Below are positions 3,378-55,604 of a stretch of DNA of 64,000 nucleotides, piece by piece (position 1 is the stretch's first letter; the number at the start of each line of letters is the position of its first letter). The translations under genes and the position numbers were made by a program. The notes below the pieces were generated by a model. It ran no database searches. It was given only the letters and a program-made list of their open reading frames with translations, and was not told the origin of the DNA. This stretch comes from Octopus vulgaris (lineage: Eukaryota): positions 60,140,001 to 60,204,000 of the forward strand of contig OX597832.1 of NCBI GenBank assembly GCA_951406725.2. The letters are read 5' to 3'.

Positions 3378-3380
<3 letters not shown>

Positions 3381-3584
3381 GAGTAAACAAGAGACAGAAA
3401 CAGGCAGAAAGAAGGAGAATGCCACTTGCATTTGAATACCATGCAAATATTCTTTTAAGAAAACTTTCTTTTAATTTTTTTCAAAATTTAATTGTTTCCA
3501 TACTTACAGTTGAAAAATTATCAATGACTGAAACCGGAACTGAAATTTTTTTTATAAAATTACTTTAGCATTATCTACCTTTTT

Positions 3585-3587
<3 letters not shown>
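3378..3587 (+). mobile_element. (TA)n-flanked insert of the same family as 37610-37790, with decayed HHR-like core
   Basis: cagTTGAAAAattatcaatgactGAAAccggaactgaaat..ttttataaaatta.tttagcatt.tcta matches 37700-37770. Confidence 0.65.
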
Positions 3588-3625
<38 letters not shown>

Positions 3626-16491: not shown

Positions 16492-17123
16492 ATACATGCC
16501 TCACGCTAAGAGGGACATCAGTCATTTCTACCAAAAAATCATACCCAATGCAATTTTTCAAAGCAAGACATTTAAAAAAATGAATTTAGTCTTGTATCAC
16601 CTGTGATTTCGCACTTACCGCAGAGTTGCGACCATGCTCATCAGCAAGACTGATTCTGAACATATCATAAATAAACGACCAGTACCGTCAAAGTCGAACA
16701 GCCATCTGCTCTATTCCAACGAAGCACATGGAGAAGCTTACATATCATACATCCGGTAAATGGCGGGCTTCTTCGAATTGCATTTCGGGTAGGAAAAGTT
16801 TTTTCGGAATAAATTTAACAATTAAGGATAACTTCTTAATAAGGAATCTTAACAAGAAATTATCAGGTAGATAGCGTGAAAGACCTCATAAGAGAAAAAT
16901 TTCGAAAATAATTCTTTCTTATTGAACATATTAATTTATATATAGAGGGCATTATTATACATACATGCCTCATGTATGTATAATAATGCCCTCTATATAT
17001 AAATTAATATGTTCAATAAGAAAGAATTATTTTCGAAATTTTTCTCTTATGAGGTCTTTCACGCTATCTACCTGATAATTTCTTGTTAAGATTCCTTATT
17101 AAGAAGTTATCCTTAATTGTTAA

Positions 17124-17129
<6 letters not shown>
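16492..17129 (-). mobile_element. Retrozyme / Penelope-pLTR-like element: 469-nt unit, 12-nt redundancy, 159-bp perfect inverted repeat, inserted in (TA)n
   Basis: atacatgcctca at 16492 and 16961; arms 16809-16967 and 16971-17129 with 3-nt spacer; (TA)n on both flanks; canonical HHR inside. Confidence 0.8.
16588..16651 (-). ncRNA. Canonical type I hammerhead ribozyme
   Basis: Minus strand AGTCTTG-CTGATGA-GCAT-ggtcgcaactctgcggtaa-GTGC-GAAA-TCA-cagg-TGA-TA^CAAGACT; stem I 7 bp perfect; AUA triplet, cleavage between 16595/16594. Confidence 0.9.
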
Positions 17130-22027: not shown

Positions 22028-22742
22028 CGAGGGGAAGTCAAAAGTTATCTGCTCTTTTGCCTCAGCATATTTTTGTTATTGTCCCACTGCCTTCTGCGCA
22101 TGCGTGCTTATAGTTGGTACTGTTGTTGTCATGTGATAGAAGTTTGAGCCTAATCGCGCCATTTTTCTTTCTGGCTTCACAGTGTAAGTATGGCCGCTCC
22201 ACTAGCAATGTGCATCAAAGTAGAACAAAGAGCAGTGATCTCATTTCTCTGGAAAATGGGTCAACGATCAACAATGCAAGATACAGTTCTTTGCTGGCCA
22301 ACAAACTGAAGCCAGTAATTTGCAACAAAAGCCGAAGCCTATTGTCGAAGAAAGCTTTGTTGTTGCATGACAATGTACGCCCATACACGACCGTCCAGAC
22401 CGTTGAAACCATTAACCAATTGGGTTTTGAGATGCTGGTGCATCCTGTCCACGGCCCAGATCTCGCCCATTCAGACTATCATATCTTTGGATCGCTCAAA
22501 GATAGTTTACGAGGTCATCGATTTCCTATGGATGAAGATGTGAAGGAAGCGGTGCATAAATAGTTGTGTGACTGACCAAATACCTTCTTCTTGGAGGGAA
22601 TACGCAAGCTTGTGGACCCCTGGACCAAGTGCATCGAAAAGGAAGGAGACTGTATAGAAAAATGAGGTACTTGTTTATCCCCGGCTTTTGGGGGAATACA
22701 TTAAAAAAAACAAGAGTGAGTATAATTTTTGACTCGCCCTCG
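22028..22742 (+). mobile_element. Internally deleted mariner (DD34D) transposon with TIRs and TA TSD
   Basis: TA|cgaggggaagtcaaaagttat ... ataatttttgactcgccctcg|TA; translation LLLHDNVRPY...HPVHGPDLAHSDYHIF with 34 residues between the two D; stops and deletion present. Confidence 0.92.
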
Positions 22743-33035: not shown

Positions 33036-33838
33036 ACTAAACTCATATTCGCTCTACAGTCAAGCAGATATGCTTGTAAGGAGAATTGTATAAAGACTGG
33101 TTTTTCGATAAAATATGAAGAATTAACCTCATTAATATTGAGGTATTTAGTTTATATTTTTCACCTTTTGTATTTTATTTCAATATTTTGTCTCGATATT
33201 AACTAATCGGCAGATATTAAATAATCGATAGATACCGCATAATCAATATTTAATTTGATTTTAAAGACGTATAAAGTCTGTCTATATTTTTCCCCTACTC
33301 GTGGCTGTTAATATTATAGTGTTAATTTACGGCTGCGACTATATATGATAAATATTAATTTGTATTCAAGCATACACCTTAGGTTGAGATATTTAATAAA
33401 TTGTTTTTTAAAAAATAATAATAACGAGCATTTCAAGATCAAAAACATAACGGCCATTATGTCTTTATTAACATATATATGTATTGTATTACATTAATTA
33501 ATATACTTTAATATACGTATTGTATGTTTAAAAATCAATATTTTTTTATTATTTTGACCAGTTGTATCTTCTACCACTTTCATGCAGCACCGAGTCTGAT
33601 TTGATTAATAAAATCTTCGCTGTTCATGGTCTTCAACCAAATTCTTTGATTCTGTTGTATGGTAAAATATTGAAGTGAATGTTGTTTTGAACTGACAGCT
33701 CAAAGGGCATACGTTCAAATTTCTAACTGATATTTCGTTGGGTGTGTATTAGAAAATTGCCATTCTCTCAGCCGGTTACAAGTTTATTCGTCATCTTATT
33801 GTTACTGTTATTTATTTTATGTTTCCTTTTATCATTTT

Positions 33839-34050
33839 CAGCGTGGAAGGTGTTTATAAGCTATTTAAAACACACACAAAAATCGTTAGATTCACTTCAA
33901 CATTTAAATTTAATTTGCCAAAATATTTTCGTCTGTGAACAAGTCGCGGTCTCAAAGCGACGAAAATATTTTGGCAAATTAAATTTAAATGTTGAAGTGA
34001 ATCTAACGATTTTTGTGTTTTTAAATGGCTTATAAACACCTTCCACGCTG
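33839..34050 (+). mobile_element. Foldback element (~93-bp arms) with G3-C8 HHR-like centre
   Basis: Arms 33839-33933 / 33959-34050; centre gtct-GTGAACA-A-GTCGC-ggtctcaaa-GCGAC-GAAA-ATAT-TT-tggc. Confidence 0.7.
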
Positions 34051-37582: not shown

Positions 37583-37609
37583 AGGTTGAAAAGGAGCGCA
37601 TGAGTTGAT

Positions 37610-37786
37610 ATATATGGAAAAGAAAGTCAAGGTAGAAAATGCTGAAATAATTTTATAAAAACCATTTCACTACCGGTTTCGGTTATTGAGACATTTATAC
37701 AGTTGAAAAAGTCCCAATGACTGAAACCGGTACTGAAATGTTTTTTATAAAATTATTTTAGCATTTTCTATCCTGACTTGTTTTTC

Positions 37787-37790
<4 letters not shown>
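37610..37790 (+). mobile_element. Foldback element (~80-bp arms) with U3-A8 minimal HHR-like centre, in (TA)n
   Basis: CATTT-ata-CAG-TTGAAAA-AGTC-ccaat-GACT-GAAA-CCGG-TA^CTG-AAATG at 37692-37740; arms tagaaaatgctgaaataattttataaaaa / tttttataaaattattttagcattttcta. Confidence 0.75.
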
Positions 37791-37846
<56 letters not shown>

Positions 37847-42590: not shown

Positions 42591-42925
42591 GTGGTGATGA
42601 TGATGATGATGACAGTGATGATGGTCAATATGATGACAATGATAATGACGGTGATGATGATGATAACGGTGGTGATGATGATGATGATGATGATGAGGAG
42701 GAGGAGGAGGAGGAGGAGGAGGGGATCATGTTCATGTTGGAGAACAGATTCATGTAAAGTTGGGGTGAAAAAAAGACTTCAGTGGATGACTACAACAACA
42801 ACGACACCAATAACAGCATCAGCAGCAACAGCATCACCAACGGCGACAACAACATCCGCAACAACAGCAACAACAACAACAGCAACAACATCCACAAGAA
42901 CAACAACAACACCAACAGCCAAAGC
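42122..42925. repeat. Compound (CAT)n,(GAT/GGT)n,(GAG)n,(ACA)n trinucleotide tracts
   Basis: Direct reading; explains poly-D and poly-M ORFs. Confidence 0.9.
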
Positions 42926-44516
42926 AAGTAAAACCAAGAACAGCGAAGACGAACAACGTTGCGAATACGACAATAACGTCACGTGACAGTGATGTGAGGT
43001 GATTAAGGGAAATGATTGACAGGAAGGTGTGGTGAGGAGTGTCGGCGGGAGGGGAGGTGTTGAAAGCGGATCAGCTTTGTCAGTGATGATAGAGCAAATA
43101 CTGATTATGAGCAAAGGTTGACATCTATGACGAGCAGGGATGAATGTGGCGAGGATGTAGGATGGGACGAGGAACGTAGTATGCACGATGGCCAAAAGTA
43201 AGTGGAACCGTGTAGGGTAAATGTCACACGGGAGAAGGCCAAAGGTTACGCGGCGAGGTCGGAGTAAGAAGTAGTGAGAGTTTTGGCGGAGGTCACACAT
43301 GAAAGGACGGTATTCATACAGTTTAGGAGGAAAATTATGGAAACGTTTAGCAAAGCAGTGGTCACGGAAGGGTGGGTTAAATGTAACGAAGATACGACAA
43401 AATAAGGTGCTTCTTTTGAATGGGGAAGGTCAGATGTGAAAGGATCAACGATAAAGAGACAGGGAGAAAAATAAGGAAATATTTTGAAGGGCAAAGGTCA
43501 CAGAGCGGAGGAGCAAAAGTTTGGAGCACTTCGCAAAGCAGTGGTCGCACGAGGACCAAACTAAGGTGTCCTTTTGAATAAGAAATGTCATATGTGAAAG
43601 GGTCAACAAGAGAAGGGAGGGGCAAATGTCATATGAGAAAGGGTTAACAAGAGACAGGGGTAAAAATAAGGAAACATTGTGCAGGGCAAAGATCAAATGC
43701 GAGAGGTAGAATAGGTACTCAGGTAAGGAGTCTTTTAGTAAGGTAGAAATCTCAGGAGACAAGGATGGGTTAAAAATGTCCCAGCTATGGCCATCACGTC
43801 CATTTTAGTGATATTATGTATCTAAGAATATATTTTCCATTATGGGAGTGTCTTATAAACACCAGATGAGTCCTGATAGAGCTAAAGTACCTCTCGTCAA
43901 AGATGCTCTAATCGGGTACACATCAACGTCCAAGCGGCATTGTGCATCGAGGAATATACTAACTATCCATGATAAGATCAGTTGAGTATTTCAGTCGTTC
44001 CATAGCAGAAGTGCTTAGAAAGTTGTAACTACAAAGTAATTCCCCAGGCAGAATCAGCGTTATAGTGGTTTCAAATTTTGGCACAAAGCCAGAAACTTCG
44101 GTGAAGGGGAAATTCGATTGACCCCGAAGGGATGAAAGGCGAAGTTCGACCTCGGTGGAATTTCAACTCAGAACATAAAGACGGACGAATGCCGCTAAGA
44201 ATCTTGCCCGGCGCACTAACGATTCTGCCAGCTCGAATCAGCGTAATATTATTTGAGACAAGGTTAGGTCTTTTGAAGCGTGGCTATAGTCCATCTGACG
44301 AGCTTCCATACAGTTTCCGCTGGCTCAATTTTATTCACAAAACCTCAACTCAGCAGAAAACACGTAAAGAGATTCTTGCTCCAATTACTTTGTGTGAAGT
44401 GAGATCGAAACAGATTTTATGACTGCTGCGAACCTCTTTAACTATTCAGACATCGCAGATATAAAGCCACACACAGACACGCGCGCGCAAAGACACACAC
44501 ATATACGAAGAAAAAT

Positions 44517-47891: not shown

Positions 47892-48410
47892 ACTGTTCTT
47901 AACTGATTGGAAGTGTTATCATGTACATTGTTTTGTCTTGGTATAAAAGATGGGTTACAGCAAATATTCTACTCAGTACCACAGAGTTGCTTGTCAGTTG
48001 TTTGACCATTACCTGTTGAGCATGTCCCTTAGTGCCTGACGATATGTCCATCTCTGATCACGAGCAGAAGTAGCGGGGAAGCATCATAGCCATGTGTTGA
48101 GTGGAATTCTTTGGGATTTGGATAATTCACCTTCGGAAACATGAGTGTTTCGTTCAACATCCTTAAACAACCCTTATTCAGGGACCTTTTGAACGGGGTG
48201 GGTTACTCCACCTGAAGAAAATTCTAACTGGGCCCCACCTGCAAGGTCATGCACTGTTTATCTTGATATGAGATAACCATGTCGCGCACATATGGTTGTG
48301 ATGCAAGCGGCTAGTGTACCCTTATCAGACGGGTAGTCATGATGGGTATACTGGGCTTCGTATATCTTAACCCAGTGTCACTTTCATGGCATGCACTGCC
48401 CTCTCACTCA
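47892..48410 (+). mobile_element. (TAA)-tailed retroposon 3' fragment, copy 1
   Basis: Collinear with 51036-51502; ends gcatgcactgc.ctctcactcaat followed by (GAT)(AAT)n. Confidence 0.7.
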
Positions 48411-48422
48411 ATGATGATGATG

Positions 48423-48521
<99 letters not shown>

Positions 48522-48539
48522 TTAAGGAATAACAACAGA

Positions 48540-49056
48540 AAAAGATGGTATAGGCACACACCAGAAAAGGTCACAGAAAACGAGAAAGCAACCATACTCT
48601 GGGATATGCCAATACACACAGATAGAGAAATTAAGGCCAACAGACCAGATATAGTTGTCAGAGATCATGAAGAAAAAAATGCTTTCTAATTGATGTATCA
48701 ATACCAGCAGATGACAACGTGTCTCTAAAAGAAATGGAGAAACTTTCAAAATACAAAGACCTGGGAATAGAGGTAACCAGAATGTGGAATCTAAAAACAG
48801 AAACAATTCCTATCATAGTAGGTGCATTAGGCATGATAAAAAAATATTCAGACAAATACATAACAAAAACACCAGGACTTACAAACACATATAACATACA
48901 GAAAATTGCACTACTAGGCACTGCACACATCCTACGCAGAACACTTTCCATACAATAACCATCAGAGCATCACAACAAATCACAGCACATTCCCAAGGCA
49001 CACAGAGCTGCGCTCTGTAGTGAAGTGAAAGCACGGTATAAAAATAAAACTACGGA
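48540..49056 (+). mobile_element. R4/Dong-clade non-LTR retrotransposon 3' end (restriction-like endonuclease domain)
   Basis: WYRHTPEKVTENEKATILWDMPIHTDREIKANRPDIVV...(frameshift)LIDVSIP...KEMEKLSKYKDL...IPIIVGALG...IQKIALLGTAHILRRTL; PD..D..K..KY motif; (TAA)n on both sides. Confidence 0.88.
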
Positions 49057-49114
49057 ATAATAATAATGATAATAATAATATTTTAAAAAATAATGATAAC
49101 AATAATAATAATTA

Positions 49115-50893
49115 ATTGGCAACAAAAAATAAGTCATTTATTTTATATGGATGACTTAAAACTATGGCAAAGACGATGAGCTTGGAAGACTACTACATAC
49201 TGTGAAAGCATTCAGTGGTATCATCGGGATGGAATTTGGTCTTGTAAATGTACCAGGGTCACTTTCCAGAAAGGGAAATTGAGGACTTCACTTTCAATGG
49301 CGCTGGATGTTGACCACAGTCATAAAAGAACTCGAGCAGGAACAAACTTACAAATATCTCGGAATAAATAACGGCTCTGGCATGTAACATGCAAGTATGA
49401 AAGAGATCAGGAGACAATGTTACAGAAGAGTTTGAGCAGTCTGAAAATCCGAGTTAAATGTACGTAACAAGGTGTTCACTATAAATCCCTTAGCAGTTCC
49501 GGTTGTTATTTATAGTTTGAATGCGTTGAACTGGAATATGAGCAAAATAAATAAGATTGACAGGAAAATCCGTAAGCTGCTGGCTTGCAATGAGATGCAG
49601 ATCGTCTTTACCTACCCAGAGCTCAAGGAGATCGAGGCTTGATGCAGTTTGAAATCTCTTACAAAACCACCACAATCGGACTGGCAAAATATCTTGAAAC
49701 ATCTAACGACTGGATCCTAAAACCCGTTGAAAACCACGTAAAAGTAAAAAAAAAGCTTCATTCTGTTATGAAGGAGAGCAAAAAATTTTCAAGTGAGTTT
49801 ATGCACAATATCCAGGTTGAACAACATGATGGAAGTGCGGCAACTGCAGCTGCAAAGCAGGTGAAATCAATATCAAAGCAAACTGCGTTTGAACAATTTG
49901 AACAATTAGCTGATACGTGGGAACAAAAATCTCTGTATGGCAAATATGTGGCCCGTAGCAAACAAGCTCAATGTAAACTAGAAGCAAACCCTTCAGTGAC
50001 CACGGCGCTCAGTGCTAAAGGCAGAGAGTGAAGGCTTTATCTTGGCTGCCCAAGATCAGAGCATATTGATCAGGAACTATCAAGCCATGTGCTAAAAAAT
50101 GGTGTAGACCCAAAGTGCCAATACTGCAACGATGGGATTGAAACAGTGGATCGCCTAATCTCTAGGTTTAAGGTTTTAGCACCTGTAGAGTACAAATCAA
50201 GACATGACAGGGTTGACCAATATCTACGTTGGATAATGTGTCAGCATTATAAAATCAAAACTGCTGACAAATGGGACAATCACAACCCTCAGGCGAGGGA
50301 GAAAAGGTGACGATTCTTTGAGACTTCCCAGTATTTACAGGCCGGACCATCAAAGCAAATAAACCAGATTTTGGTGTGAAAGACCAAAACAATACAGTCT
50401 GTTTATTGATTGACATGAATATACACTGTGACCATAATATCTCGGAAAAAAAGAATTTCATAAGCTCAGAAAATATAACGATTTGCTAATCAAAAAGATG
50501 TGGCATCTCAAGGGGGTTACAATACCAGTGATTGTAGTTGCACTTGGAATGAACAAAAAAGGAACTGGAAATTATTTAAGAATGATCCCTGGTTTACCAT
50601 CCATGCAGGAAATGCAAAAGATTGTCTTAACTGGTATGTCACGTGTACTGAGAAGAGCATCGTCGAGGTGAATTTTCTTTTCTTTCTCCCCATTTACTTT
50701 CTTTATTCACTTTTTTACTTTTTAGTTTTTCCTTTTTCTCTCTGTCTTTCACCCCCTTTTTCTCTATCAGACGAATTTGTAAATGAACAATCCGGTGTGT
50801 TTAGTTTAAGGCTTACCAATGTATACAGTACGTTTCTCTGCCCTAGGTATCAGGAAGACACTCAGCAAGAAATGAAGACAGAATCGAAAGAAG
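49115..50893 (+). mobile_element. Decayed R4/Dong-clade element (RT C-half, CCHC remnant, REL)
   Basis: ISHLFYMDDLKL (YMDD at 49144-49155), YKYLGI, EGFILAAQDQS, CQYCNDGIETVD...YKSRHDRV, ANKPD, TIPVIVVALG, MQKIVLTGMSRVLRR; many stops and frameshifts; (TAA/GAT)n flanks. Confidence 0.88.
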
Positions 50894-54920: not shown

Positions 54921-54963
<43 letters not shown>

Positions 54964-55604
54964 AAAAGTTGTAAACAGCGAAAGCGCATAATATACTGTG
55001 AAAACTTCCTTCCAAAAATTTCGTAATTCCGTCGATTTTTTAAAAACTCTTTTATATAGTTAATTTCTAATTTCAGGGAATATTTCTTCAAATATTGTAG
55101 CTGTATCAAGAAATCTTTTCAAAAATATATATTCATAATGCATCAGTTCTCGCTGGATGCCGATCTCCCTACTAACAACACCATCTGATCCACATTGATC
55201 AATAGCAGCCCTCATTTTTCAGCAGCCATTATTAACTTCCTGTACTTCTGAGCTTGAACGAGTTAGATTTCTGTCAGAAGCCTGCGAAACTTTAAGTCGC
55301 TTGGAACTGAATCACACCGTTTAAAATAATAATCTATGTAGCTCCTACTAAAGGTGTTGAGCACGTTTTCATTTGCTTGTCCTCTCGTGTGTGTGTGTGT
55401 ATATATATATGCATGTGTGCGTGCGTGTGTGAGGGTGAAAAGTTAAGATCCTAGGATCAAGGCGTAGGAAGTTAGTAAGCTTCAAGTAATCCGCATAAGA
55501 TATAAAAGACAACTTTCAGGAATAATACTGGATTATTGGCGCAGAAGGTTGTGAATTTTTCCCGTATCGAGGTACGATAAGCTGAAAAAAAGGGGTTGCT
55601 GTAT

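Follow-up and report, generated by a model that had tools for sequence, protein, structure and literature searches.

The 37.7-kb locus and its hammerhead motif

The window analysed here is a stretch of 64,000 nucleotides from Octopus vulgaris, and is animal DNA rich in repeats: it carries long microsatellites, SINE-like repeats, and the decayed frames of transposons. At 37.7 kb it holds two arms of one repeat family joined head to head. The left arm (37608-37692, minus strand) is an inverted, 5′-truncated copy of the element's 3′ end, which starts inside stem II of the hammerhead motif described below and ends in four AT units; it is without core nucleotides 3-9, carries a C at position 11.1, and has one stem I pair broken. 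An inversion junction of non-family sequence (37693-37697) leads to the right arm (37698-37789, plus strand), where the family match begins at 37698. This right arm is a direct, 5′-truncated 3′ end of the family, probably from the 3′ UTR or pLTR of a Penelope-like element (PLE). Its AT-rich 3′ segment (37736-37789, plus strand) runs from the predicted cut to the element end, and is followed by 56 nt of (TA)n (37790-37845), the putative target microsatellite. The motif had originally been described as (TA)n-embedded, which applies to this right side and fails on the left, where only the four AT units (37608-37615) are present. Arms 37608-37692 and 37711-37795 of the foldback differ by 11 mismatches in 85 nt (89 nt at 87% in a second computation), and the fold energy is -97.9 kcal/mol (z -18).

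Both a descriptor match and a reading of the sequence place a type I minimal hammerhead pattern at 37700-37735 (plus strand). It is composed of a 3-bp stem I (37700-37702/37733-37735), a core of U3-U4-G5-A6-A7-A8-A9 (37703-37709) that is a U3-A8 variant, and a 4-bp stem II (37710-37713/37719-37722) with a 5-nt loop and an A10.1-U11.1 closing pair, followed on the same strand by GAAA (37723-37726), CCGG (37727-37730), U16.1 (37731), and A17 (37732). The predicted cut lies at 37732^37733, after a GUA triplet that conforms to NUH. The pattern has the following traits of a type I minimal hammerhead: a Watson-Crick 3-8 pair (U3-A8), GAAA, an A15.1-U16.1 pair, four stem II pairs with a purine at 10.1 and a pyrimidine at 11.1, and three stem I pairs. 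In stem III, the six nucleotides from A15.1 to U16.1 (37726-37731) form a palindrome. No extra unpaired nucleotide stands between A9 and 10.1, whereas the published PLE consensus commonly has one. The string given in the original prediction, CAG-TTGAAAA-AGTC/GACT-GAAA-CCGG-UA^CTG, is present exactly at these positions, and its 1-bp stem III with palindromic CCGG and GUA triplet is seen in the sequence. It was also proposed that stem I can be lengthened across a 3-nt bulge (CATTT/AAATG), but this does not stand as a family feature: the letters at 37692-37696 belong to the inversion junction, upstream of the family match.

On both strands of the window, with C3-G8 or U3-A8 allowed, the hammerhead descriptor matched three times, and only the match at 37700-37735 has a palindromic stem III. 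Local Markov shuffles (n = 300) gave a mean of 0.11 descriptor matches, with a palindromic stem III in 0 of 300, and the core pattern was matched by none of 100 dinucleotide shuffles. The motif is a real hammerhead pattern, above chance. No Rfam hammerhead match was obtained in 37680-37760 at E values up to 10, and the short motif (48-56 nt) folds no better than shuffles (z -0.24 and -1.13), both of which are expected because stem III is a single pair. The window-wide Rfam scan covers the best 150 of 503 matches, mostly microsatellite-like miRNA.

A second copy and an abundant repeat family

A second, non-inverted copy of the family lies at 3505-3590 (plus strand), is 84% identical, and is followed by (TA)n. 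As had been noted from the sequence, its hammerhead (3507-3542) is decayed and keeps cagTTGAAAA: U16.1 is changed to A and stem II has two mismatches, while the stem I 5′ strand and the core are kept. Upstream of this hammerhead are at least about 30 nt of family sequence (3476-3504, plus strand) that are missing from the 37.7-kb copy. Two (TA)n tracts, separated by about 210 nt, flank the copy, which may start after the one that ends near 3379. A 62-codon open frame (about 3380-3568, plus strand) runs through it; this frame was considered as an ORF remnant and discarded, having no alignment to the PLE ORF of contig L019 (described below), no Pfam match, and one weak 19-residue hit among 1.84 billion proteins.

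Public contigs were aligned to 37686-37792 at 80% likeness, and 1,940 contigs matched in run X1, 1,870 in X4, 1,249 in X8, and 190 in X13, under two species labels; these are short contigs, so the counts are not copy numbers. X1, X4, and X8 are DNA-type runs; X13 may be RNA and likewise consists of contigs, in which RNA ends are not visible. The repeat family is clearly abundant. Contig cover begins at 37698, where in four of four runs the loose ends match sequence upstream of the 3.5-kb copy; by eye, their consensus corresponds to 3476-3504. At the other end, family members in all four runs extend to about 37783-37785 and a few letters more, roughly 55 nt beyond the predicted cut, and (TA)n follows. 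The loose ends at these two positions indicate that the right arm is a 5′-truncated 3′ end, and because the family continues directly 5′ of 37698, the foldback is not the rule in the family.

These ends also bear on a different reading of the locus, as a TA-targeting MITE that has a hammerhead-like string in its terminal inverted repeats by accident. A near-perfect inverted repeat of 188 nt flanked by TA is what such an element would look like. However, the copy at 3.5 kb is not inverted, contigs continue non-inverted 5′ of 37698 in four of four runs, the left arm begins midway through the motif, and the contigs as listed show no strand-change joint, the last being a weak point as contigs are short. 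We regard a MITE as very improbable; the foldback is two 5′-truncated 3′ ends placed head to head.

Variation among contigs describes the family motif. Ten variant rows were listed at 3% or more, all of them within 37722-37754, seemingly the stretch where variants were callable. There, variable positions account for none of six in GAAA, U16.1, and A17 against 6 of 19 in the flanks (p 0.28); the anticipated greater conservation of the core is thus seen in direction and falls short of significance, over about 37722-37754 only. The claim that U3-A8 is a family trait, and not a one-off mutation, is borne out at the scope of the contigs: none of the variant rows touches the core, and U3-A8 persists in the consensus of the loose ends of a stem II subfamily. 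A17 is likewise the family state, with no variant row at that position. A C at 11.1 occurs in 40, 69, 8 and 59 contigs (4-16% of depth). Among the rows listed, the loose-end consensus in X1 and X4 (9 and 29 records) has the U3-A8 core, a G at 10.1, and a distinct loop; C11.1 occurs together with the loop variant of this G10.1 consensus in the left arm of the foldback. This points to a swap between A-U and G-C in the stem II closing pair 10.1-11.1, with a linkage that is indirect and not on one molecule. G37735A reaches 6-22% of depth; a second 5′ subfamily, with loose ends at 37701 in a register uncertain by 1-2 nt, may carry a compensating change, and this case is left out of the pairing evidence. 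A family-specific pattern gave no matches in metagenome contigs.

Relation to Penelope-like elements

PLE coding sequence was sought in the window in several ways. Pfam searches of 150 ORFs (148 of 352 complexity-filtered frames plus two added by hand, from a total of 753 frames with at least 45 aa) found no RT or GIY-YIG remnant. A tblastn search with 59 PLE proteins gave one chance-level match in the window, at 667-921, which was not recovered by the profile and resembles a dispersed short repeat; tblastn with the ORFs of contig L023 gave nothing there, and the PLE profile scan of the window reached E 0.07 or worse.

A relaxed pattern, comprising the U3-A8 core, the same palindrome, and two stem I pairs, returned 27 loci, 26 metagenomic and one viral, most of which are without stem II and are chance matches. 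The profile of 59 PLE proteins matches two of the 27, L019 and L023; the other 25 are not PLEs. This profile was seeded from L023, so that the L023 match arises by construction, and the Pfam results are independent. In the metagenome contig L019 (144-2388, minus strand), an apparently intact ORF of 718 aa contains an RT, a CxxC linker, a GIY-YIG domain, and a short C-terminal extension, with Pfam E values of 3.8e-8 for GIY-YIG and 7.3e-6 for RVT_1. Its motif begins 57 nt after the stop codon; stem I has 5 bp, stem II is weak with only 2 bp, and (TC)n comes about 100 nt later. L023 (1-1037) holds the end of a GIY-YIG ORF (E 0.002), and P0001 contains the same end at 100% plus the RT part; here the motif lies 135 nt beyond the stop codon and is a U3-A8 hammerhead of good form, its stem II of 4 bp closed by G-C and its stem I bulged, with 3+7 bp. 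An inverted copy of an upstream part is joined to the 5′ end of L023, with 41 nt common at the junction. A further open frame of 327 aa lies upstream of the L019 PLE ORF.

The proposed architecture, a PLE-type minimal hammerhead with U3-A8, is supported, and the same motif type is present at the 3′ ends of the PLEs in L019 and L023. Judged by sequence, U3-A8 combined with the palindrome is a PLE 3′-end signature. Both PLEs have a CxxC before GIY-YIG and are Neptune-like by the description in the available text of PMC8557442; their likeness to the window motif in U3-A8 core and 6-nt palindrome was imposed by the search pattern. Beyond that, L023 resembles the window motif in the 5′ strand of stem II and the start of the loop and also has an inverted 5′ copy, and L019 shares a microsatellite 3′ end with the window family. 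Both differ from the window motif in having C17, a G10.1-C11.1 pair with an extra nucleotide, and a linked ORF. The layout of the window family is itself PLE-like, with a hammerhead near the 3′ end, 5′ truncation, an inverted 5′-truncated copy, and a microsatellite end. We infer that the family is of PLE origin; no PLE ORF was found for it in the window.

It is also conceivable that the family is a non-autonomous hammerhead repeat, either non-LTR retrozyme-like or a short PLE derivative, that has no ORF itself and is copied by a PLE in trans; the ribozyme would then act in the same manner. An ORF was not found upstream of either copy in the window, the 3.5-kb copy lies between two nearby (TA)n tracts, and retrozymes are described, in the part of 10.64898/2026.07.22.740005 that was available, as PLE pLTR derivatives. 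Non-LTR retrozymes (from the accessible portions of PMC7229834 and 10.64898/2026.07.22.740005) share with the window family a type I hammerhead in a short non-coding PLE-related repeat, but form tandem arrays, whereas tandem units are absent from the window, which has two dispersed loci 34 kb apart. Varied 5′ truncation and head-to-head inversion are moreover typical of autonomous PLE insertions (PMC8557442, available text). We consider copying in trans improbable and retain a PLE family as the source.

Proposed insertion history and predicted activity

On the reading that we favour, with a probability of roughly 0.78, 37608-37795 represents the 3′ end or ends of an abundant PLE family whose parent motif would be a dimer-acting hammerhead, and the hammerhead is a passenger at this locus. 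The region would have arisen by one complex insertion or by two adjacent insertions of the PLE-family 3′ end. Reverse transcription of a PLE transcript would start at a nick in an AT repeat, by target priming at (TA)n, and short cDNAs would leave two truncated 3′ ends: a direct copy cut off 5 nt ahead of the core and, head to head with it, an inverted copy truncated inside stem II, the 3′ ends of both facing outward into AT repeats. Of the 85 sites compared, the arms differ at 11, including some of subfamily type, so the insertion may be one old event or two adjacent ones.

Activity at the 37.7-kb locus is not borne out by folding, as the foldback is predicted to pair away stems II and III. 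In plus-strand RNA that includes the left arm, the predicted stem II pair probability is about 1e-10 and the hammerhead can be forced at a cost of 33 kcal/mol; with the right arm alone, the predicted stem II probability is 0.04. The ribozyme here would thus be a passenger: a plus transcript would form a hairpin through the left arm, the minus strand is without the core, and no intact partner lies close by, the only same-strand partner within the window being the broken copy 34 kb away. Cleavage at this locus, on these models, is highly doubtful.

In the parent RNA, a stem III of one pair would not form within a single unit. When two units are present, as they would be in a tandem PLE transcript, their 6-nt palindromes could pair and their stem I strands could be swapped, yielding a double hammerhead that would cut after A17, slowly, and probably with help from PLE protein. 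Cofolding of a dimer gave an MFE of -17.3 with essentially the double hammerhead topology (ideal -15.1), against -10.6 for two monomers; the cofolded units include the junction-specific stem I extension, and the dimer energy gain was matched by 137 of 300 shuffles. In the dimer ensemble, U3 pairs with A17 at a probability of 0.39, hence low activity is expected. This U3-A17 pairing would be a self-trap, comparable to C3-G17, which the available text of PMC3884650 proposes as a trap in minimal hammerheads. That U3 may take A17 and not A8 as its partner is part of the reason why slow cutting is predicted. We consider it somewhat more likely than not that the family motif cleaves in a dimer. PLE hammerhead variants that cleave as dimers were reportedly described by Lunse et al. 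in 2017, and that work may cover the U3-A8/A17 combination.

Comparison with known hammerheads

The window motif belongs to a class that has been published, and the implied rarity of U3-A8 is not supported. In the text available to us, PMC4209133 (Cervera and de la Pena 2014) finds minimal hammerheads of the U3-A8 kind among Cercyon PLEs, with about 1,300 S. mansoni hits, and natural U3-A8 covariation was reported in 2011 (PMC3088659) and stated there as already shown active. PMC4209133 also describes opposite-strand pairs, a palindromic helix III, and low dimer activity in PLE hammerheads. The core sequence at positions 3-9 is the same in the window motif as in the PLE minimal hammerhead S. 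mansoni(4), and further likenesses to this published set are an unstable palindromic helix III that needs a dimer, a short helix I, AU-rich flanks, and an occurrence mostly as solo or opposite-strand copies from truncated elements. Unlike that set, the window motif is without the extra nucleotide after A9 and has a 4-bp stem II with A10.1-U11.1 (G-C in the subfamily) and a 4-nt palindromic loop. As far as the available motif listing of PMC4209133 extends (56 motifs), two are U3-A8 (with G17 and U17) and none is from a cephalopod; the window motif differs from these two rows in its A17. The extra nucleotide is missing as well in the M. japonicus and S. kowalevskii(2) rows. The Marsupenaeus japonicus PLE hammerhead (PMC4209133, Fig. 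S3, as available) likewise has no extra nucleotide, and has A10.1-U11.1, a 4-bp stem II, a short palindrome, and A17, but it is C3-G8, so there is no 3-17 pairing.

Inverted 5′-truncated PLE copies, 3′ hammerheads, and (TA)n targets are described by Craig et al. 2021 (PMC8557442, in the text available). The Hydra-clade and Neptune PLEs treated there, such as Hydra-1_Obim and Penelope-13_HM, share with the window family a hammerhead near the 3′ end, a (TA)n preference, and an inverted 5′ copy; among them is a Hydra-clade PLE from octopus that carries a C3-G8 hammerhead. In contrast, the hammerheads listed in the accessible part of that source are all C3-G8, and the Hydra ones have a stem III of 3-4 bp. 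Six short family motifs gave no family match and one unrelated 11-nt match in the portion of its supplement that was available, where line breaks can hide matches, and family motifs were not found in the PMC5786205 supplement, in the portion accessible. Literature searches for hammerhead with U3-A8 found only PMC4209133, and those for U3-A17 found nothing; for Octopus with ribozyme, by title only Craig et al. is relevant. O. vulgaris has 190 Penelope-like families covering 6.83% (PMC13282606), with hammerheads unmentioned in the available main text and supplement of that study, and its repeat library (Zenodo) may already include the window family.

These comparisons add one high-copy family to the published class of U3-A8 minimal hammerheads of PLEs, and account for the foldback as an ordinary outcome of PLE insertion. 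The A17 state and the common SINE tail described below are the two points that this explanation leaves over. According to the accessible text of PMC11167929, a PLE hammerhead cleaves in vitro only with protein and is dispensable for insertion there. Catalytic hammerhead mutants left insertion in vitro unaffected in that work, and thousands of natural U3-A8/A17 variants could show whether PLE hammerheads have been selected for cleavage.

SINE-like tails and other repeats in the window

Six SINE-like 3′ tails in the window (4023, 10990, 15271, 22809, 37866, and 45844) have stem II, GAAAC, and GUA in common with the U3-A8 hammerhead. The likeness covers the 3′ half of the ribozyme, positions 10.1-17, and stops at the predicted cut site. 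In five of the six tails, 0-3 of 500 shuffles align as well, and in the sixth 26 of 500. The motif could accordingly be read as a LINE/SINE-type 3′ recognition hairpin, identical with the one at the close of these SINE-like repeats, and not as a ribozyme, with the remaining hammerhead pattern a coincidence or a dead relic. In addition to the tail alignments, which exceed shuffles in five of six, the weak folding of the monomer and the U3-A17 trap would fit a hairpin. The tails, however, are without core 3-9, palindrome, and stem I, whereas the family keeps all three and extends 55 nt beyond the hairpin; core and palindrome stand together as a signature behind PLE ORFs in L019 and L023, and the G-C variant of 10.1-11.1 is the canonical hammerhead pair. 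A recognition hairpin is for these reasons quite unlikely, and a hammerhead remains our reading of the motif.

Two features were overlooked in the original prediction, the potential U3-A17 pairing and the half of the motif that recurs in SINE-like tails. A more speculative reading joins them, U3-A8 with A17 being a built-in off-switch and the SINE-like tails having been taken from the ribozyme's 5′ cleavage product. U3-A17 would then block cleavage until PLE protein or dimer contacts release it. If true, tail capture would explain why the likeness begins at stem II and breaks off precisely at the cut, and the SINE tail would be captured from, or recognised by, a PLE, tying the SINE to PLE and not LINE machinery. 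Cephalopod SINEs are described as RTE-related (PMC5786205, in the part available), and therefore a LINE source of the tails is favoured; we think it quite unlikely that the joint reading holds.

The descriptor matched at two other places in the window. At 16588-16651 (minus strand) is an unrelated type I hammerhead with C3-G8, a 7-bp stem I, a long G-C-closed stem II, and a stem III of 4-5 bp. Its A17 is at 16595, it lies about 100 nt upstream of (TA)n, it scores 13.6 bits for Rfam Hammerhead_1 and 16.8 bits for RAGATH-1 (both below threshold), and it resembles Hydra-clade PLE hammerheads. Directly 5′ of this segment and beside (TA)n is a perfect 159-bp inverted repeat (16809-17129), 100% complementary with a 3-nt spacer, which is either a very young insertion or an assembly artefact; its centre repeats a few letters of the element's 3′ end near 16495. 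The third match, at 54955-54996 (plus strand), is U3-A8 with a non-palindromic stem III and a stem I of AT/GT repeat letters, and is probably due to chance.

A further long AT-rich foldback occurs at 33837-34050, with a MIR8007-like hairpin at 85 bits (below threshold), and is possibly a MITE. Frames at 48315-50307 (plus strand) resemble a decayed non-LTR retrotransposon, and those at 22114-22563 (plus strand) and 42779-43429 (minus strand) resemble mariner-type transposase fragments. Pfam assigned no family to the frames in these three intervals, and one relative protein, at 65%, was found for 49594-50028.
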